The position numbers and the translations under genes are program-made. 64,000 nucleotides of DNA, from contig JABIRL010000145.1 of the NCBI GenBank assembly GCA_018667855.1, positions 151-64,150 of the forward strand, in the 5' to 3' direction. Shown here piece after piece: positions 56,101 through 64,000 of the stretch (its first letter is position 1; the number at the start of each line of letters is the position of its first letter). The notes beneath the pieces were generated by a model. It saw only the letters and a program-made list of their open reading frames with translations, did no database searches and was not told the DNA's origin. Source of the stretch: Rhodospirillaceae bacterium (GTDB lineage: Bacteria; Pseudomonadota; Alphaproteobacteria; GCA-2731375).

Positions 56101-57060
56101 ATGACCAGTGTTGTGACAGACAAAGCTCCGCTTACCCTTGATCGCGGTAAATTTAATGATCCGCGCCGGACACTGGACGGTCAGGCGCGCGCCGCCGTGA
56201 CCTTGAACAATCTGGATACCCTTTGGTTCAATACCGGGACCCTGTGTAATCTGACCTGCACCAATTGCTATATCGAATCGAGTCCAACCAACGACCGCTT
56301 GGCATATCTGACTGCAGCGGAGGTCGGCGCCATGCTGGACGAGTTGCAAACCGATTGGCAGGCGCGCGAAGTTGGTTTCACGGGGGGCGAGCCCTTCATG
56401 AATCCGGATATTCTGGCCATGCTGGAGGATGCCCTGGGTCGTGGCTACCGGGTGCTGGTTCTGACCAACGCCATGCGGCCCATGATGAAACTGGCGGACG
56501 GCCTGCTGGCGTTGCGGAATATTTACGGCGAAAAATTGTGTCTGAGGGTGTCGGTGGATCATTATGCCCGGGATCTGCATGATTTGGAACGCGGAGAACA
56601 TGGCTGGGACCGCATGCTGACCGGGCTGACCTGGCTGGCGCGGAACGGCTTCAACATCAATATCGCCGGGCGCACCTTGTCGGGGGAAGAGGAAGACAGC
56701 CTGCGCCAAGGTTATGCCAGGCTGTTCGTTGAGCATGATATTCCCGTCGATGCCGGCGACGGCGGGGCGCTGGTGCTGTTTCCGGAGATGGATGAAGATC
56801 TCGACGTGCCGGAGATTACCACCGCGTGTTGGGGCATATTGGATGTCTCGCCCGACGGAATGATGTGCGCCACATCCCGCATGGTGGTCAAGCATAAGGG
56901 TGATGGGCGGCTGACCGTGATGCCCTGTACCCTGTTGCCCTATGACGAACGCTTCAAAATGGGTGCGACTTTGGCCGATGCCAGTAGCCCCGTGGCCTTG
57001 AACCATCCCCATTGCGCCCGCTTTTGTGTGTTGGGCGGCGGCTCCTGCAGCGTCGCATAA
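56101..57060 (+). CDS. Radical SAM protein with Cys-rich C-terminus
   Basis: CNLTCTNC, FTGGEP, LTNA; C-terminal C...C...C...HPHCARFC..GGGSC. Confidence 0.9.
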   Translation: MTSVVTDKAPLTLDRGKFNDPRRTLDGQARAAVTLNNLDTLWFNTGTLCNLTCTNCYIESSPTNDRLAYLTAAEVGAMLDELQTDWQAREVGFTGGEPFMNPDILAMLEDALGRGYRVLVLTNAMRPMMKLADGLLALRNIYGEKLCLRVSVDHYARDLHDLERGEHGWDRMLTGLTWLARNGFNINIAGRTLSGEEEDSLRQGYARLFVEHDIPVDAGDGGALVLFPEMDEDLDVPEITTACWGILDVSPDGMMCATSRMVVKHKGDGRLTVMPCTLLPYDERFKMGATLADASSPVALNHPHCARFCVLGGGSCSVA

Positions 57061-57122
57061 GGCTTAATACAACCCATAAATACGTTAACGCGACGCCCAT
57101 GATCGGCCTATGATGGGCCCCC

Positions 57123-58310
57123 ATGAGCCAAGTAAAACCAAGCTATGAAAAACCATTCGCAAGCCTGAAGGTTCTGGATTTGAGCCAAGGCTTTGCTGGC
57201 CCCTATTGCGCCCAGCTGCTGGCCCAATATGGCGCCGACGTCACGAAGGTGGAACCGCCCGAGGGTGACTGGGCCCGGAACCTGGGCATCGTCTATGGCG
57301 ATCAATCAACCATAGCCATGACCGCCAACCGGGGTAAGAAAAGCATCGCGCTGGATTTGAAGAGCGAGGGCGGGCTGGCGGTCGTAAAGGAGCTGGCCCG
57401 GCAATGCGATGTCTTCATCGAAGGTTTCCGCCCCGGTGTCTGCGCCCGATTTGGCCTGTCCTATGATCATGTGCGCGCGGTAAACCCCGGCGTCATTTAC
57501 CTCTCCATCAGCGGCTTTGGCCAGGAAGGTCCCTATGCGCGGGAGCCGGCCACGGATACGGTCCTGCAATCATTTTCCGGCCTGATGTCGATTAATCGCG
57601 GCAATGACGAGGTCCCCCATCGGGTTGGCCATTATATCGTCGATTGCGTCACGGCTTTGTATGCCTATCAGGCTCTGTCCTCGGCCCTTTATGCGAAACG
57701 GGACTTGGCTGAGGGCCGTCTTATCGACTGCAGCCTGATGCAGGCCGCGGCGGCCCTGCAAACATCCAAGATCGCGGATTATCATCTGGAAGGCGGAGTG
57801 CCGGCGGAAAACAATTCTCCGGCCGGTAGCTATGACACCCAGGATGGTTATATCGCGATTACCCTGGTGAAGGAGGAGCAATTCCCGAAATTGTGCCTGG
57901 CCCTCGGTCAACCAAGCCTGGTCGATGATCCCCGGTACAAGAATTTTGCCTCTCGTGCCGCGAATATGGACAGCCTGGGTCCGATCGTACAAGAGATCTT
58001 GATGCAGGATACGGCCGCCGGTTGGGCTGAGCGTTTTCACAAGGCGGAGGTGCTATGTTTTCCGGTCGCCGAACATGGCGATTGGCTGGTAAATCCCCAT
58101 GTGCTTGCCACCAGCGCATTTCAGATGATGGACCAACCCGGCATGGGCATGGTGCCCTTGGCGCAAATACCCGGCACCGTATCGATAGATCCCGATGACC
58201 CCTCCCAACGCGCCCCGACGCTGGGCCAGCACAGCCGTCAGGTCCTTACCGAACTGGGCTATGACGAGGGTAAAATCACCGCGCTGATGGCCGAGGGCGC
58301 GGTCCGGTAA
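57123..58310 (+). CDS. CaiB/BaiF family III CoA-transferase
   Basis: VLDLSQ..AGP, KVEPP.GD, NRGKKSIALDLK, FRPGV, SGFGQ.GP, APTLGQHS. Confidence 0.93.
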   Translation: MSQVKPSYEKPFASLKVLDLSQGFAGPYCAQLLAQYGADVTKVEPPEGDWARNLGIVYGDQSTIAMTANRGKKSIALDLKSEGGLAVVKELARQCDVFIEGFRPGVCARFGLSYDHVRAVNPGVIYLSISGFGQEGPYAREPATDTVLQSFSGLMSINRGNDEVPHRVGHYIVDCVTALYAYQALSSALYAKRDLAEGRLIDCSLMQAAAALQTSKIADYHLEGGVPAENNSPAGSYDTQDGYIAITLVKEEQFPKLCLALGQPSLVDDPRYKNFASRAANMDSLGPIVQEILMQDTAAGWAERFHKAEVLCFPVAEHGDWLVNPHVLATSAFQMMDQPGMGMVPLAQIPGTVSIDPDDPSQRAPTLGQHSRQVLTELGYDEGKITALMAEGAVR

Positions 58311-58327
58311 GGCGGGCGGGGCGCACC

Positions 58328-59776
58328 ATGGGAGAGTATCGGGCGGTCTTTCTGGTCAATGGTGTTCTGCTGTTGATCCTGGGCCTTGCCATGTTGGTGC
58401 CGGCAATGCTGGATGCCCGTGTGGGACATCCCGATTGGCAGGTCTTTCTGGCGGCTGCGTTCCTAACCGGGTTTGTCGGCGCCGCCCTGACGATTACCTG
58501 TTGGGGCAGCGGGGAAAATCTTCATTTGCGACAGGCTTTCGTTCTGACCACCACGGTCTGGGTCGTGACGCCGGCCTTCGGCGCCCTGCCGTTTGTGTTT
58601 GCCGATCTGGACCTCAGTTACACGGACGCTTTTTTCGAGGCGATGTCCGGCATAACGACGACGGGCTCGACCGTGATCTCGGGTCTGGAATATGCTCCGC
58701 CGGGCATCTTGATCTGGCGGGCCTTGCTGCAATGGATGGGTGGCATCGGCATTATCGTCACCGCGGTTGCTATTCTGCCCCTGTTGCAGGTCGGTGGTAT
58801 GCAACTGTTTCGCATGGAATCTTCCGATGCTTCGGAAAAAGTCCTGCCCCGCACGGCACAGATCGCGGGCGCCATCAGCATGATCTATCTAGCTCTTTCC
58901 TTTATCTGTGCGTTCGGTTACTGGGCCGCCGGAATGCCGGCCTTCGAGGCCGCCGCCCACGCCATGACAACCATAGCCACGGGCGGTTTCTCAACCTCCG
59001 ATCAATCCATGGGAAGCTATGACAGCGCCTTGATCGACTATACCGCCATGGCCTTCATGATCATCGGCAGCCTGCCGTTTCTGTTGTATTTTCAGGTTCT
59101 GCGGGGACGGCCCCTGGCCTTGTGGCGGGATAGTCAGGTGCGCTGGTTCTTTGCCATTCTGGCGACGGCGATCGCCGGCATGACGTTCTATCAGATCGGC
59201 GGCAATGACAGACCGGCAGCCGAGGCGCTGCGGTTCACCGCCTTTAACGTGACATCGATATTGACCGGCACGGGATATGCCACCGACGATTACGGCCAAT
59301 GGGGCGGTTTCGCGGTGGTTATGTTTTTCTTCGTGATGTTCATCGGCGGCTGCGCCGGCTCGACCTCGTGCGGCATCAAGATATTTCGGTTTCAGGTGCT
59401 GTATGCGGCCGCGCGCACCCAAATGGGGCGATTGTTGCAGCCCCATGGCGTTTTCGTCGCCAACTTCAACCGCCGCCCCATACCGGATTCGGTGATGGAT
59501 TCGGTGATGAGTTTCTTCTTTCTATTCATTCTCAGTTTTGCCGTCATCGCGGTGTTGCTGAGCCTAATGGGTCTGGATTTCCTCACCGCGGTCTCTGGGG
59601 CCGGCACCGCCATCGCCAATGTCGGGCCGGGCCTGGGCCCCGTGATCGGGCCGTCGGGCACCTTCGCACCCTTGCCGGACATGGCGAAATGGCTGCTGGC
59701 GGCGGGGATGTTGCTGGGCCGATTGGAATTATTGACGGTGATGGTGCTGTTCACCAGGACTTTCTGGCGCAGCTAA
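58328..59776 (+). CDS. trkH: Trk potassium uptake membrane protein
   Basis: Four pore loops: SGITTTG, IATGGFS, LTGTGY, IANVGPG; GGCAGST, GRLE. Confidence 0.95.
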   Translation: MGEYRAVFLVNGVLLLILGLAMLVPAMLDARVGHPDWQVFLAAAFLTGFVGAALTITCWGSGENLHLRQAFVLTTTVWVVTPAFGALPFVFADLDLSYTDAFFEAMSGITTTGSTVISGLEYAPPGILIWRALLQWMGGIGIIVTAVAILPLLQVGGMQLFRMESSDASEKVLPRTAQIAGAISMIYLALSFICAFGYWAAGMPAFEAAAHAMTTIATGGFSTSDQSMGSYDSALIDYTAMAFMIIGSLPFLLYFQVLRGRPLALWRDSQVRWFFAILATAIAGMTFYQIGGNDRPAAEALRFTAFNVTSILTGTGYATDDYGQWGGFAVVMFFFVMFIGGCAGSTSCGIKIFRFQVLYAAARTQMGRLLQPHGVFVANFNRRPIPDSVMDSVMSFFFLFILSFAVIAVLLSLMGLDFLTAVSGAGTAIANVGPGLGPVIGPSGTFAPLPDMAKWLLAAGMLLGRLELLTVMVLFTRTFWRS

Positions 59777-61152
59777 TCGAATACCTGGCTGGGCAGCCAT
59801 GTCGCTATCATTGGGAACGCCAGGACCAGACCAATGACGAATAATTGGGCGCCGACCACGGGAATAATGCCGCGATAGATATCGGTAATCTTAACCTCTG
59901 GCGGCGCGGCGCCTTTCAGGAAGAACAAGGCGAACCCAAACGGCGGGGTCAGGAACGATGTTTGCAGGGTCAAGGCGATTAGGGTCGCCAGCCAAAGCGC
60001 GCCTTGGGTGCCTTCACCCGCGTGGTCGGCGAAATCCAAATCCGCCAGCACCGGCAGGAACAATGGCAGGGTGATGATGGTGATTTCGATCCAGTCGATG
60101 AAGAACCCCAGGATAAAGATGATGCCGATAATGGTCAGCAGCATGCCCCAGTCACCAAACGCCAGGCCTAGCAGCATGCCGCTGACGACCTCATCACCAC
60201 TGAAAAAACGGAACGGATAGGAAAAAACGTTTGCCGCCATGACAACGAAGAAGACCATCGCTGTCATCAGGGCTGTGCCCTCGATCGCTTCCCGAAACAA
60301 CGGCCATGTCAGGCGGCCGTTGAGCAACATCAGCAACAGACCGCCGGCGGCACCGACAGCACCCGATTGAGACGGCGTGGCCCAGGCAAATATGATCGAA
60401 CCGAGGACCAGAAAAATCAGGCCCGCCGGCATCAGCAAGCCACGCACATAAAACCAGAGCCATTGCATACCCGTCCAGCCCAGGCTCCAATCCTGTTCCG
60501 TTCGGCCCTTACGGGGAACGGGCGGCGAGATGATGGCCGCCGTGATGTAGTAGATCAAATAAAGCACGATCAGGATGCCGGCCGGCCACAGCGCGGCCAG
60601 GAATATATGGCCGATCGGTGTTCGCAGTTTGCCGGCGAGAAAAAACAGCATGATTGCCGGCGGCAGGATCAGCCCCAAGGTTCCCGCCGCCGCCACCACG
60701 CTGCTGGCTAGAGACGCCTTGTAACCCTGGTCCAACATGGTCGGCAGCGCGATAAGTGCCAGCGTGGCGACGGAGGCGCCGACCACCCCCGCCGTCGGCG
60801 CCAGCAAGATGCCCAGCAAAGTAACGGCGATCGCCATGCCCGCCGGCATGCGGCCGAACAGATGCTGCAGGCACAACAGCAAATCGCGGGCGATGCCGCT
60901 TTTTTCCAATGCCATCCCCATGAATAAAAGCATCGGGACGGTGGGATAGATCTGACTACCGTTGATGCTGCCGTACAGACGCAACGGCACATTCAGCAGG
61001 GCAATCCACTGCATCTCGTCCAGGGCAATGCCGATCAGGCTGAAGGCGATGCCAAGGCCGGCCAGCAGGATCGCGACAGGCAGTCCGGAAAAAATCAGAA
61101 TGGCCAGACTGGCCAGCATGAGATAGGGCAGGACATCAACGAACTCGAACAT
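59773..61152 (-). CDS. dctM: TRAP transporter large permease DctM
   Basis: SGLPVA, LLAPTAGVVGASV, AAGTLGLILPP, GFFIDWIEI, LQTSFLTPPFGFALF; AGGA RBS overlapping the upstream stop. Confidence 0.92.
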   Translation of the reverse strand: MFEFVDVLPYLMLASLAILIFSGLPVAILLAGLGIAFSLIGIALDEMQWIALLNVPLRLYGSINGSQIYPTVPMLLFMGMALEKSGIARDLLLCLQHLFGRMPAGMAIAVTLLGILLAPTAGVVGASVATLALIALPTMLDQGYKASLASSVVAAAGTLGLILPPAIMLFFLAGKLRTPIGHIFLAALWPAGILIVLYLIYYITAAIISPPVPRKGRTEQDWSLGWTGMQWLWFYVRGLLMPAGLIFLVLGSIIFAWATPSQSGAVGAAGGLLLMLLNGRLTWPLFREAIEGTALMTAMVFFVVMAANVFSYPFRFFSGDEVVSGMLLGLAFGDWGMLLTIIGIIFILGFFIDWIEITIITLPLFLPVLADLDFADHAGEGTQGALWLATLIALTLQTSFLTPPFGFALFFLKGAAPPEVKITDIYRGIIPVVGAQLFVIGLVLAFPMIATWLPSQVFD

Positions 61153-61158
61153 CAATTC

Positions 61159-64000
61159 CTAATCCTTGCCGCGGCGCCGGGACAGATTGCGTAATATCGC
61201 GACTATGGCGGCCAGCAGGAATAGTCCGATGCCGAGTGGCATGGAACTTTTTAGAATCCCGCGCAGGAGCGGCTCGCTCCGGAAGCTCTCGACCACATAA
61301 GGAATGCCAAAGTACAGAATGACCGCTGCAAAAGGCAGCATCAGAAGCAGGAACCCAACCAGTTCGATGCGGTCCCGCGTGGCTGCACGAAGCCGGTCGC
61401 GAACGATATCCACCCGAACATGGGCGCCGCGTACATAGCCAAAACCCAAGGTCAAAAAGACCAACAGCAGGAACATGGACCATTCGATATATTGCGGCGC
61501 GATGGTGACGTAGTCGAACACCTTGCGGGCAACAATTTCGAAAATACGGGCAACGATCATCACGGTGATCGTGACGGCGGCGATCCAGAAGCCGATGCCG
61601 GAGATAACGGCGTCAAGTCGGTCCAGATAATATTGCAACTTCTCCCGCCGTGTTTTGCTACGGAACGCGGCCCAACGTTGGGGCCACAGCGCACGCCGGG
61701 CGCTATATTTCGTGCGCATGTTACTTACGTCCAATTGGATCGCGATCAGGGCGGGGATTACCAGCAGAACCAGGAAGGTCGCCACCGCCAGGCCGAATAT
61801 CATGGTGATGGCCATGGGAATGAGGAATTGCGCCTGCAGGCTGGTCTCGAACAACAAGGGCGTCAGGCCGCCGATGGTGGTCAGAGAGGTCAGCAGCACC
61901 GCGCGCAGGCGATCCTGGCTGCCGCCGATGATGGCTTTGGTGGTCTCCTCGCCGCTGGCGATGCGTTCGTCGATGGTGGAGACCAGGATGATCGAGTCAT
62001 TGACCAGAATACCCGACAGGCCCAACAGACCCACAAGGGTCAAAAGACTTAGGTCAAAACCCAATAGCAAATGGCCGATCACGGCGCCAACCACGCCAAA
62101 GGGAATGATCGCCATGACCACGATCGGCCGCGTGTAAGAGGCGAAGACCCACGCCAGAATGATGTAAATCGCCGACATGCCGACCAGGGCGCCCAGGCGC
62201 ATATCCGACATGGTGCGGGCCTGTTCCTCCGCGCGGCCGGCGAAGGTGTATTGCAAACCGTATTTGCGGACGATATCAGGCAATCGGCCGCCTTCGAGGG
62301 CGGGAATAAGCTTTCCCGCACGGATCTTGCTTTCATCCAGTTCACCCGTGATGGCGATTTCACGCTGGCCGTCCTGACGGCGAATGCGGGCAAAGCCGAT
62401 TTTTTCCCGCATGGTCACCACTTCGATTAACGGGACCTCGGCGCCCGAGGGGTTCCGCAAATACAGGTTCAGAAGACCCTGGGTCGTGATGGCGCCGCGG
62501 GCATATTGCACCTTCACGGTGATTTCCTCATCGCCGCGGGGAAACCGTTTGGCGATGGCGCCTTGAAAGGCGGCGCGGACCTGCCGGCCCACGCTATCGG
62601 TGGAAAAGCCCAAGGCCCGCCCCCGGGGCGTCAGCTCCAGGATCACTTCCTGCTTGCCGATGGGCAGGTCGTCTTCAACATCGCTAACGCCAGGGAAACG
62701 CTCCAGCAATGTCTTGATCTCGGCGGCGGCGGATTTCAGGTCACGGGTGCTGCCGCCGCTCAAACGAATGTCAATTTCCTTGCCGGGCGGACCGCCCCTG
62801 CGCTCAATCAGATTGATGCGCTCGACACCCGGCGTCATCCGGATATTCCGGCGCCAGACATCAATAAATTCCGCCATGCGAACCTGACGGTGATCGGAGG
62901 GGACCAGTTGCACATACAGGCCGCCGTATTTGTCGCCGCTGACACTTTGGAATTCCCGCGCCTGGGACTTGCCCAGTTTACCGAATGTGGAATGGATCAG
63001 ATTTTCATCCCCGGCGCCGCTTTCGGTTGGTTTTTCCAGGGTCAGATGCGCTGCCTCGTGGGCGGCGCGTTCCAACTCCCGCACCATTGCCCCGGTGCGT
63101 TCGCGCGGGGTTCCGGGCAGCATCACCACATTGCCGTAAACAATGTCCCCCTCCGGTGTGGGAAAGAATTGGAAGCCGACCCGCCCGCCGCCGATAATGC
63201 CCAAGGACAGTATCAGGGCGGCGATGGAGACGGCCAGTGTCAGGTATCGCCATTCGACGCAGACAACCAGAACGCGGCGGTACAGACCGTCGCGAAAGCG
63301 GTCGAAGTGATCGTTGAACCATATGCGAAAACGTGATTCCCGTTCTCCACCGGCGGAGAAAGCGCCGCGCAGATGACCCGGCAGTACCAGGAAACATTCA
63401 ACCAGACTGGCGATCAGGACCGAAACCGTGACCAGGGGAATGGCCGACAGTATGGTGCCGATAATGCCGCTGATCAGGATCAGGGGCAAAAAGGCGGCGA
63501 TCGTCGTCAGAGAGGATGCAATGACCGGCGCCAGCATGCGCAGGGCGCCCTGTTCCGCCGCCTCTTCCGGGCCAAGGCCAAGCCGGCGGCGGTGCGCGCT
63601 ATGTTCCGCCACCACGATGGCGTCGTCTACGATGATGCCCAGTGTCATGATCAAGGCGAACAAAGAGACCATGTTGATGGACTGGCCGCTTAGCAGCATC
63701 ACGCCCATGGTCGCCATCAACGCCACGGGGATACCGGCGGCGACCCAAATGGCGACCCGCAGATTGAGAAAGATGAACAGAATGATCAGGACCAGGGCAA
63801 GGCCGCCAAGGCCGTTCTTCAAAAGGATCGCGATGCGCTCCCGGATCAGGCCGGCCTGCACATCATAATGTTTCAAATTCAAGGTCGGCGGCAGGGTTTG
63901 CCGCAGCTCCGCCAGATAGTCCTCCACCGTTTGCGATATGTCCAAGGCATCGGCGCCGACGGCACGTTTGACATGCAGTTCTATGGCCCGGTCGGCCGCC
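61159..64000 (-). CDS. RND (AcrB-family) permease fused in frame to a C-terminal DctQ domain (5' end beyond the window)
   Basis: GIIVDDAIVV (TM4), GILVNDSI (TM10), RLRAVLLTSLTT (TM11), then a basic linker and a 4-TM DctQ with HVRVD; frame open to 64000. Confidence 0.85.
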   Translation of the reverse strand, partial: AADRAIELHVKRAVGADALDISQTVEDYLAELRQTLPPTLNLKHYDVQAGLIRERIAILLKNGLGGLALVLIILFIFLNLRVAIWVAAGIPVALMATMGVMLLSGQSINMVSLFALIMTLGIIVDDAIVVAEHSAHRRRLGLGPEEAAEQGALRMLAPVIASSLTTIAAFLPLILISGIIGTILSAIPLVTVSVLIASLVECFLVLPGHLRGAFSAGGERESRFRIWFNDHFDRFRDGLYRRVLVVCVEWRYLTLAVSIAALILSLGIIGGGRVGFQFFPTPEGDIVYGNVVMLPGTPRERTGAMVRELERAAHEAAHLTLEKPTESGAGDENLIHSTFGKLGKSQAREFQSVSGDKYGGLYVQLVPSDHRQVRMAEFIDVWRRNIRMTPGVERINLIERRGGPPGKEIDIRLSGGSTRDLKSAAAEIKTLLERFPGVSDVEDDLPIGKQEVILELTPRGRALGFSTDSVGRQVRAAFQGAIAKRFPRGDEEITVKVQYARGAITTQGLLNLYLRNPSGAEVPLIEVVTMREKIGFARIRRQDGQREIAITGELDESKIRAGKLIPALEGGRLPDIVRKYGLQYTFAGRAEEQARTMSDMRLGALVGMSAIYIILAWVFASYTRPIVVMAIIPFGVVGAVIGHLLLGFDLSLLTLVGLLGLSGILVNDSIILVSTIDERIASGEETTKAIIGGSQDRLRAVLLTSLTTIGGLTPLLFETSLQAQFLIPMAITMIFGLAVATFLVLLVIPALIAIQLDVSNMRTKYSARRALWPQRWAAFRSKTRREKLQYYLDRLDAVISGIGFWIAAVTITVMIVARIFEIVARKVFDYVTIAPQYIEWSMFLLLVFLTLGFGYVRGAHVRVDIVRDRLRAATRDRIELVGFLLLMLPFAAVILYFGIPYVVESFRSEPLLRGILKSSMPLGIGLFLLAAIVAILRNLSRRRGKD

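Follow-up and report, generated by a model that had tools for sequence, protein, structure and literature searches.

The window analysed here, a stretch of 64,000 nucleotides, carries near its end a minus-strand gene in which an RND permease runs into the TRAP transporter subunit DctQ, followed by dctM. The locus raises the question of whether the two halves are truly one protein and, if so, in which direction the TRAP half would move its solute at an efflux pump. The open reading frame extends without interruption from the end of the window to its stop codon at 61159, so that the frame passes from the RND C-terminus through a linker into DctQ, as an earlier note on this DNA had read it (Table 1). 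The gene starts further along the contig (window-equivalent position 64815), and its product of 1218 amino acids contains both Pfam ACR_tran (E 2e-113) and DctQ (PF04290; E 2e-11, 44.6 bits against a cut-off of 28.3) in a single chain. The ATG of the 3' gene (61152) lies 6 nt past this stop, also in agreement with the earlier note, and its product is DctM (Pfam PF06808, E 9e-56). The earlier note had seen no adjacent dctP and proposed an inspection of the upstream region; the gene that abuts RND::DctQ directly upstream, outside the window (C299:64966-66207), encodes a 413-amino-acid RND adaptor (MFP), identified by the model TIGR01730 with a score above its cut-off. The three genes form one operon in the order MFP – RND::DctQ – dctM. 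A scan of the locus for promoters and terminators returned nothing usable. In one RNA run, two contigs of 151 bases mapped to the RND part and none over the linker.

Table 1. Features of the fused gene and of dctM within the window.
Feature	Position	Strand	Description and basis
RND permease part	61735..64000	-	residues ~273-1027 of 1218; Pfam ACR_tran, PDB match, model, motifs
Linker, basic, helical, cytoplasmic	61624..61734	-	~37 codons, stop-free; length constant among relatives
DctQ domain, 4 TM, C-terminal part of fused gene	61159..61623	-	Pfam DctQ, SiaQ-like model
dctM, 459 aa, dctP-less clade member	59773..61152	-	Pfam DctM, model, trees

The RND half belongs to an uncharacterised subfamily that scores under every NCBIfam cut-off. 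Its in-window part covers ACR_tran profile positions 277-1016, the closest sequence match in the PDB is MexK (full-length, E 3e-70), and the predicted TM7-12 superpose on AcrB with an rmsd of ~1.5 Å. The profile and MexK matches agree with a permease of 12 TM helices and two extended periplasmic loops. Among the proton-relay residues, whose roles are described in PMC10924465, the TM4 DD pair (63627-63622) and the TM11 arginine (61911) are present, and the equivalents of D407, D408 and R971 are kept in 22 of 22 aligned orthologs. The earlier description of the relay as intact is correct for these residues, but it overlooked TM10, where valine takes the place of the lysine (AcrB K940) in all 22 orthologs, fused and unfused alike. 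In this alignment, the loss of K940 is a subfamily trait and not a consequence of the fusion. Genes for outer membrane factors (OEP family) were found elsewhere in the genome (C38, C295, and a fragment on C178).

An AlphaFold2 prediction for residues 856-1218 (mean pLDDT 90.6) gives the linker a helix-kink-helix conformation; with a pTM of 0.69, the model does not fix the orientation of RND and DctQ relative to each other. The modeled DctQ matches SiaQ (7qha_A) with a TM(target) of 0.77. TM12 ends at about 61735, DctQ begins at about 61623, and the HVRVD motif occupies 61422-61408. The distance from the TM12 proline to HVRVD is 111 residues in 11 of the 12 fused proteins and 110 in the other, and it stays fixed while the linker sequence drifts. 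Eight residues of the periplasmic TM3-TM4 loop are missing in this DctQ and in those of G004, G014, and G018, that is, in 4 of 12 fused proteins, with DctM conserved meanwhile.

One public contig (run X2, which may be the source sample) spans the junction and is identical over 60800-61947, without a mismatch or a gap, and contigs from runs X3, X4, X6, and X7 each span part of the linker without differences. None of the linker parts covered contains a stop or a frameshift, and an assembly error was rejected on these contigs and on the presence of the fusion in 12 genomes. A separate dctQ with a hidden internal start, for which the earlier note had found no well-spaced ribosome-binding site and start, was likewise discarded, since no in-frame start is shared by the linkers of the 12 fused genes. 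The search for the same architecture in other genomes recovered RND::DctQ in 12 of 33 genomes of the order, distributed over two genera, as well as a second fusion family. The dN/dS values, which had also been proposed as a check, indicate purifying selection on all parts (linker 0.23, DctQ 0.14, dctM 0.06). The other possibility raised in the earlier note, a recent deletion joining two operons, was abandoned because the fusion is older than the split of the two genera, evolves under purifying selection, and has a counterpart of independent origin. The unfused states examined within the genus are decay products. DctM is still constrained (dN/dS 0.07-0.10) in two genomes in which this MFP-RND pair is deleted, and so is RND (0.05-0.13) where QM has disappeared; other RNDs remain in genomes from which this one is gone. 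Because descendants with RND alone or QM alone survive and remain under selection, the coupling of RND and QM is not obligatory. The term hybrid transporter is therefore appropriate for the architecture, which arose repeatedly and with a fixed linker length, but not for a proven or indispensable coupling.

In the second fusion (family 2), DctQ is joined to an unrelated RND subfamily, as seen in the RND and DctQ trees. A single origin of both fusions was rejected for DctM by the AU test (p=0.0007; 29 sequences, 2000 replicates, where the program advises 10000), which speaks against one origin with a later exchange of the RND part. Both families arose from the same clade without dctP and arrived at the order MFP-RND::Q-M. 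The MFP is kept in the L196 branch of family 2, and in the L062 branch no adjacent MFP was found at the five loci with a visible upstream gene. In 4 of 5 genomes, the fused RND of family 2 is accompanied by an unfused paralog and so represents a second copy. It drifts faster than Q and M (35-36% versus 69-74% for G090), and in G090 the relay of this full-length RND is degenerate. The RND tree splits family 2, but its DctQ domains group together and its linkers share motifs; a third origin was discarded and one origin is assumed for the family on these grounds. From the top 150 DctQ relatives in a set of 1.84 billion proteins, the 18 longer ones were scanned: three carry ACR_tran, one DctM, and 14 no other family, and all three RND fusions sit inside the dctP-less clade. 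For the extension of P0037, the ESM Atlas gave a best value of 0.86 and no family. A published RND-DctQ fusion or dctP-less TRAP clade was not found in literature listings that covered mostly open journals.

The DctM model (pLDDT 87.6) matches SiaM in Foldseek (7qha_B, TM 0.81); the protein scores 202 bits against TIGR00786, under the cut-off of 268. Both fusion families lie within one long-stemmed TRAP clade, whose sister is the dctP-linked TakP-like clade. We compared 38 sequences of the former with 47 of the latter, taking equivalences to SiaM residues from the sequence alignment. The serine of PPS, the hairpin threonine, and the TM11 asparagine are each present in 0 of 38 dctP-less and 47 of 47 sister sequences, and a proline inside the hairpin occurs in 38 of 38 versus 0 of 47. 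The glutamate equivalent to HiSiaM E429 is found in 3 of 38 versus 47 of 47, with glutamine in the remaining 35. The DctM studied here carries P119, A121, and A166 in the remodelled inner hairpin, Q262 instead of a conserved glutamate, and T395 instead of asparagine, and retains the Na2 residues G349 and T402 together with the site residue D353. Across the dctP-less clade, Na2, the twin prolines, and the acidic site residue do not vary. The arginine equivalent to PpSiaM R292 is present in 15 of 15 sequences of the first fusion family, which also retains R58, and in 0 of 7 of family 2. PMC10942642 describes E429 as a periplasmic residue that is strictly conserved and whose replacement reduces SiaP binding; the loops of DctQ are predicted to contact SiaP (PMC9971032). 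Compared with the dctP-linked sister, residues of the inner hairpin and of the binding-protein face are, by alignment, lost in this clade and the second sodium site is kept. The Na1 loop carries proline and alanine substitutions. Since Na1 is coordinated by backbone carbonyls in SiaQM and a Ser-to-Ala exchange equal to A121 left growth unaffected in HiSiaQM (PMC10942642), Na1 need not be lost, and we speak of a remodelled rather than a destroyed site. The outer-hairpin half of the substrate site is identical to that of the sister clade and thereby hints at a small carboxylate as the substrate.

No dctP was found at the 12 fused loci of the first family or at the family 2 loci. Duplicate loci (L058, L059), a locus with dctQ only (L046), and DctM matches under 380 residues were removed. 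Of the 15 unfused loci in the dctP-less clade whose upstream gene is visible, none has a neighbouring dctP (L053, L184, and L188, at contig edges, are left out of this count); among the sister loci, 34 of 47 do. dctP is likewise missing from five sister loci for which 5 kb or more of upstream sequence is available. The QM lineage was already without an adjacent dctP before either fusion, a point missed by the premise of the earlier note that QM is an ordinary TRAP importer. In the source genome (G000, 94% complete), all 10 DctP genes adjoin their own dctQ or dctM, and none is spare. TakP-like DctP is encoded in 39 of 40 genomes searched, and some carriers (G023, G027, G029, G032, G063) have orphan TakP-like genes. 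A dedicated orphan tracking the clade was not found in G000 and not seen in G022; one exists in G003, where QM was not found. A dedicated remote dctP was rejected, as the TakP-like genes of G022, G061, G062, and G065, which had looked like copies in genomes lacking DctM for them, adjoin their own QM and the orphan copies in other genomes do not track the clade. Four of the 15 unfused loci lie in or next to metal-resistance genes (L047, L064, L065, L194), L140 precedes an EamA exporter gene, and 10 have no efflux neighbour. Unfused loci occur among metabolic genes, and at L061 the dctQM pair follows tcuA-tcuB.

We consider it quite possible, though short of probable, that QM acts as a carrier that needs no binding protein and supplies the RND pump in a two-step export; this reading draws on gene context, residues, and analogy. 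With no binding-protein gene beside the carrier lineage, outward passage to the pump would be likelier than import. In the proposed mechanism, the operon would provide the RND adaptor, the RND permease with its C-terminal DctQ, and a DctM of the dctP-less lineage, with DctQ and DctM retaining TRAP folds in the predicted models. DctM would probably dock on the tethered DctQ beside the RND trimer, and one pump could hold as many as three QM units, as the known SiaQM stoichiometry and the topology suggest. QM would likely work without a binding protein, given the gene context and the lost contact residues, and would export a small anionic solute from the cytoplasm, which the RND-adaptor-outer-membrane channel would expel. 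The weakest step is the outward direction with hand-over to RND, proposed by analogy with two-step efflux, MtrF, and YdaH: the latter two, of the same fold, are described as efflux pumps (PMC4621753), and two-step efflux by a single-component carrier and an RND system is an established model (PMC10924465). Export is favoured by the two fusions with different RND subfamilies from one dctP-less clade, the fixed linker length, the lost E429-type contacts, and the metal-resistance and EamA neighbours. Against it count the separate survival of the halves, a TakP-like DctP that could be borrowed nearly everywhere, the five sister loci without dctP, the R292-equivalent and R58 of the first family, a Na1 site that need not be lost, the unfused loci without efflux neighbours, and the tcuA-tcuB context of L061, which fits uptake. 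In addition, SiaQM transport is reported to need SiaP, with reverse transport unfavourable (PMC9971032).

The main rival is a tethered importer, in which QM takes its DctP from another locus; the best candidate for this role is the TakP-like protein of C202, the sister system in G000. We regard such an importer as somewhat unlikely, and give no better prospects to its second part, that the fusion secures co-expression or aids membrane assembly, with import and export unrelated or serving salvage. The near-ubiquity of TakP-like DctP, the orphan copies, the outer-hairpin site and Na2 shared with the sister clade, the separability of RND and QM, and L061 all agree with such an importer. It leaves unexplained why two fusions involve RND and none another recognised non-TRAP domain, why the linker length is fixed, and why the E429, S343, and Asn equivalents were lost clade-wide; nor does any dedicated orphan DctP track the clade. 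Alternatively, QM may no longer transport and may modulate, sense for, or help energise RND pumps, in a role like that of AcrZ, fused where dedicated and in trans elsewhere. The lost polar residues of the inner half-site, the second-copy RND of family 2 with its faster drift and the decayed relay of G090, and the other RNDs in genomes minus this one would fit, but the invariant Na2, twin prolines, and acidic residue are expected of an active carrier, and together with the unfused loci among metabolic genes they make both parts of this explanation, the lost transport and the dedicated fusion, unlikely. Reversed roles, in which the periplasmic RND domain replaces DctP, captures the solute, and hands it to the elevator for uptake, would account for the missing DctP, its eroded contacts, the MFP-less L062 branch, and G090; this is very unlikely, since the first family keeps MFP and relay, the L196 branch keeps MFP, and QM is retained at the 15 unfused loci and in the two RND-deleted genomes, where DctP and this RND are both missing from its vicinity. 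An artefact or recent neutral read-through, although the frameshift that splits the homologous gene in G011 shows that such junctions can break, is scarcely credible in view of 12 genomes in two genera, identical public contigs, purifying selection, and a second origin.

The system resembles the DctP-type TRAP transporters SiaPQM and IsePQM in its DctQ and DctM folds, Q-then-M order, Na2, twin prolines, and acidic site residue, and its nearest TRAP relatives by sequence are TakP-like PQM systems such as C202. It differs from them in having no dctP at the locus or to spare in G000, in the replaced inner hairpin, TM5 serine, TM11 asparagine, and Q-M/SBP glutamate, and in the fusion of the DctQ N-terminus to RND; the TRAP fusions named in a review join Q to M (PMC5812351). 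With the HAE1-type systems AcrAB-TolC and MexJK it shares a full-length permease, an adjacent MFP, the TM4 DD pair, the TM11 arginine, and outer-membrane-factor genes, here outside the operon; unlike them, it belongs to an uncharacterised subfamily without the TM10 lysine and carries four extra DctQ helices. The elevator fold is common to the AbgT proteins MtrF and YdaH (Foldseek 4r1i, TM 0.54; 4r0c, 0.58), whereas here the sole Pfam hit is DctM, a Q subunit is present, the RND link is covalent, and export is only inferred. The proposed division of labour across two membranes is that of a carrier and RND in two-step efflux, where hand-over to RND is a long-standing model and synergy is debated (PMC10924465). 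With more reserve than for the carrier itself, the clade could be viewed as an undescribed TRAP branch that shed its binding protein, rebuilt its inner ion and substrate hairpin, partnered with RND as an exporter, and was twice welded to it, combining an elevator and a peristaltic pump across both membranes.

TRAP permeases are held to need a binding protein, which also sets the inward direction. A natural clade without a dctP gene and with lost contact residues makes the effect of the binding protein on the elevator directly testable, as well as which few residues free the elevator from it. A covalent carrier-pump that has arisen twice is a ready specimen for structural and flux measurements. 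For annotation, the 'TRAP permease' of this clade, carried by 21 of 33 genomes of the order, about two thirds, should be tested before it is taken for a standard importer.

The window occupies positions 151-64150 of contig C299 of the source genome (G000; 5.3 Mb, 94% complete). The continuous RND-DctQ frame claimed in the earlier note was recovered as a gene encoding 1218 amino acids with the Pfam domains ACR_tran and DctQ, and dctM, encoding the large TRAP permease, indeed starts 6 nt past its stop codon. Inspection of the upstream region revealed an abutting RND adaptor (MFP) gene beyond the window; downstream of dctM lies the convergent trkH. One public contig runs from TM11 through the linker and DctQ into the beginning of dctM with 0 differences, and parts of the linker were unchanged in contigs from four further runs; the runs with matching contigs are marine metagenomes. 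The relay residues described as intact are kept in TM4 (DD) and TM11 (R), but the TM10 lysine is absent, as in all 22 aligned orthologs. In the predicted model of the fused C-terminus, TM7-12 resemble those of AcrB, the linker is helical and a SiaQ-like domain follows; the DctM model has a TM of 0.81 to SiaM. Both models agree with the RND, DctQ and DctM folds.

Locations of the fused gene, its surroundings and related loci
Location	Strand	Feature
64815-61159 (window-equivalent; start lies beyond the window)	-	RND::DctQ frame
window 56101-59776	+	conserved block: radical SAM gene, family III CoA-transferase, trkH; no trkA beside trkH
window 59773-59776		overlapping stop codons of trkH and dctM
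C20:46329-48945 (G000)		TRAP operon with two dctQ
C85:5535-6257 (G000)		lone dctQ, 240 aa; no dctM or dctP within ~3.5 kb
C202:6071-9452 (G000)		TakP-like system, order dctP-dctM-dctQ
L046:7360-7899 (G028)		dctQ without dctM (decay of unfused pair)
L141:6900-8789 (G032)		partial dctM (decay of unfused pair)
L047:4988-8529		unfused dctP-less dctQM, metal-resistance setting
L064:4658-12388		as L047
L065:420-9454		as L047
L194:977-3354		as L047
L061:4039-8374		tcuA, tcuB, dctQ and dctM consecutive; dctP-less pair in a place where one would expect a tricarballylate transporter
L094:8400-10383		second dctQ-dctM pair on a long branch, in tandem after a complete dctPQM; inner hairpin altered
L183:7406-11119 (G090)		family 2 fusion, full-length RND (1237 aa), degenerate proton relay
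P0037, residues 1-185		hydrophobic N-terminal extension on a dctP-less-clade DctQ

The ACR_tran+DctQ architecture was also found in other genomes. Among 61 searched, the junction matched end to end without a stop in 12, G000 included (11 of the 21 genomes of the genus and one of a second genus), all with the order MFP - RND::DctQ - dctM. In G011, the otherwise intact linker contains a frameshift, either real or an assembly error. An RND gene with a stop precedes decayed dctQ and dctM in G008 and G016; G015 and G017 retain the RND and a dctM relic, and the RND of G009 ends in the tail also seen in G017. In G005 and G020, MFP-RND is lost and dctQ begins in the former linker, behind a TM12 relic. 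Neither part was found in G003 and G012 with the queries used. Four outgroup genomes possess MFP-RND without DctQ and DctM (QM) behind it, and unfused RNDs nest within the fused clade of the RND tree at four places. This nesting, together with the decayed loci and the QM-free outgroups, indicates that dctQM was attached to the RND a single time, in an ancestor of both genera, which contradicts the recent deletion between two operons considered in the earlier note. Several losses of either the RND or the QM side have followed.

Pooled dN/dS values (Nei-Gojobori, four species pairs, deeper pairs being near saturation) were 0.07 for RND, 0.06 for DctM and 0.12 for MFP, and, for the two segments whose constraint had been in question, 0.23 for the linker and 0.14 for DctQ. 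The linker drifts in sequence at constant length: the TM12 proline and HVRVD are separated by 111 residues in 11 of 12 proteins and by 110 in one. DctM yielded 0.07-0.10 where the family 1 RND is absent, and RND 0.05-0.13 where QM is absent; each half remains constrained after separation.

The genome scan yielded a DctM relative (L062) preceded by another ACR_tran+DctQ frame, which represents a second fused family. A search for longer proteins gave 15 matches, and both domains were present in 14, at lengths of 1225-1238 aa. The family 2 junction occurs in 7 of 51 genomes around that of L062, each with dctM behind it, and a metagenome contig (L196) repeats the order MFP - RND::DctQ - dctM. The family 2 RND is ~26% identical to the family 1 RND of G000 and groups with a different G000 paralog, on C11 (48% identity), and unfused pairs separate the two families in the DctQ and DctM trees. 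The fusion thus arose twice, independently, with different RND subfamilies; forcing both families into a single group was rejected (AU p=0.0007). Fusions of the L062 branch lack a neighbouring MFP, four of five genomes also possess an unfused RND paralog, and the fused RND evolves faster than DctQ and DctM. The family 2 RND of G090 is only 35% identical to its relatives, its DctQ and DctM 69-74%. When 1.84 billion proteins were searched with a profile, 18 of the longer matches among the best 150 were scanned, and they contained only ACR_tran (3) and DctM (1) as added domains. The extension of P0037 matched no Pfam family (Atlas best 0.86).

Both fused families belong to one long-stemmed DctM clade (SH-aLRT 99.9). 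Its sister consists of PQM systems that we take to be TakP-like and includes the C202 system of G000. Within the order, 21 of 33 genomes have a single member of the long-stemmed clade; it also occurs in 3 of ~297 sampled genomes from other families of the class. No dctP was found beside unfused QM at the 15 loci with a visible upstream gene; the sister clade has dctP at 34 of 47 loci, and five sister loci with ample context likewise have none. In G000 (94% complete), each of the ten DctP has its own Q or M. The tandem pair at L094 is a possible model for the origin of a dctP-less pair. Neighbours at L047, L064, L065 and L194 encode MerR-type regulators, a cation-efflux protein, and copper oxidase or mercuric-reductase-like proteins, and among these loci dctQM lies directly behind arsR-arsP.

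When 38 DctM of this clade were compared with 47 sister proteins (numbering of the window's 459-aa DctM, equivalences from alignment to PpSiaM), Pro119 and Ala121, the latter replacing Thr, were present in 38/38 versus 0/47, and Ser166 and Asn395 in 0/38 versus 47/47. Gln262 replaces Glu in 35 of the 38 clade members, and neither group varies at G349, D353, Q397, T402 or F407. By the PpSiaM alignment, the changed residues correspond to the Na1 hairpin, a substrate-pocket serine and the Q-M-bridging glutamate that contacts the binding protein; the Na2 site is intact (PMC9971032, PMC10942642). Since Na1 is backbone-bound and the Ser-to-Ala change was silent (PMC10942642), the site is regarded as remodelled, and its loss is not claimed.

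We tentatively propose that QM may export without a binding protein and hand its solute to the RND. DctM would bind the DctQ tethered to the RND, QM would move solute to the periplasm, and the RND would complete expulsion. An outward direction is suggested by the repeated choice of RND partners, by metal-resistance or exporter neighbours at 5 of 15 unfused loci and, by analogy, by same-fold exporters (PMC4621753) and the two-step efflux model (PMC10924465, PMC8277102). Against export stand the TakP-like DctP in 39 of 40 genomes, the tcuAB-dctQM locus L061, the periplasmic arginines kept in family 1 and the separability of the RND and QM halves. A tethered importer whose QM borrows a DctP is somewhat less likely than export. 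An accessory role of QM is improbable, and that the RND stands in for DctP is less likely still.

Judged by sequence, QM would lie outside canonical TRAP because no cognate DctP is present at the locus and the glutamate is lost. Neither an RND-DctQ fusion, in line with the earlier note, nor a dctP-less TRAP clade was found described in the literature searched, including the available part of the TRAP review PMC5812351; one homolog (P0006) already carries both domain names in one source database. The RND half belongs to a subfamily of RND proteins that is uncharacterised. As a whole, RND::DctQ-DctM is a new variant assembled from known kinds.
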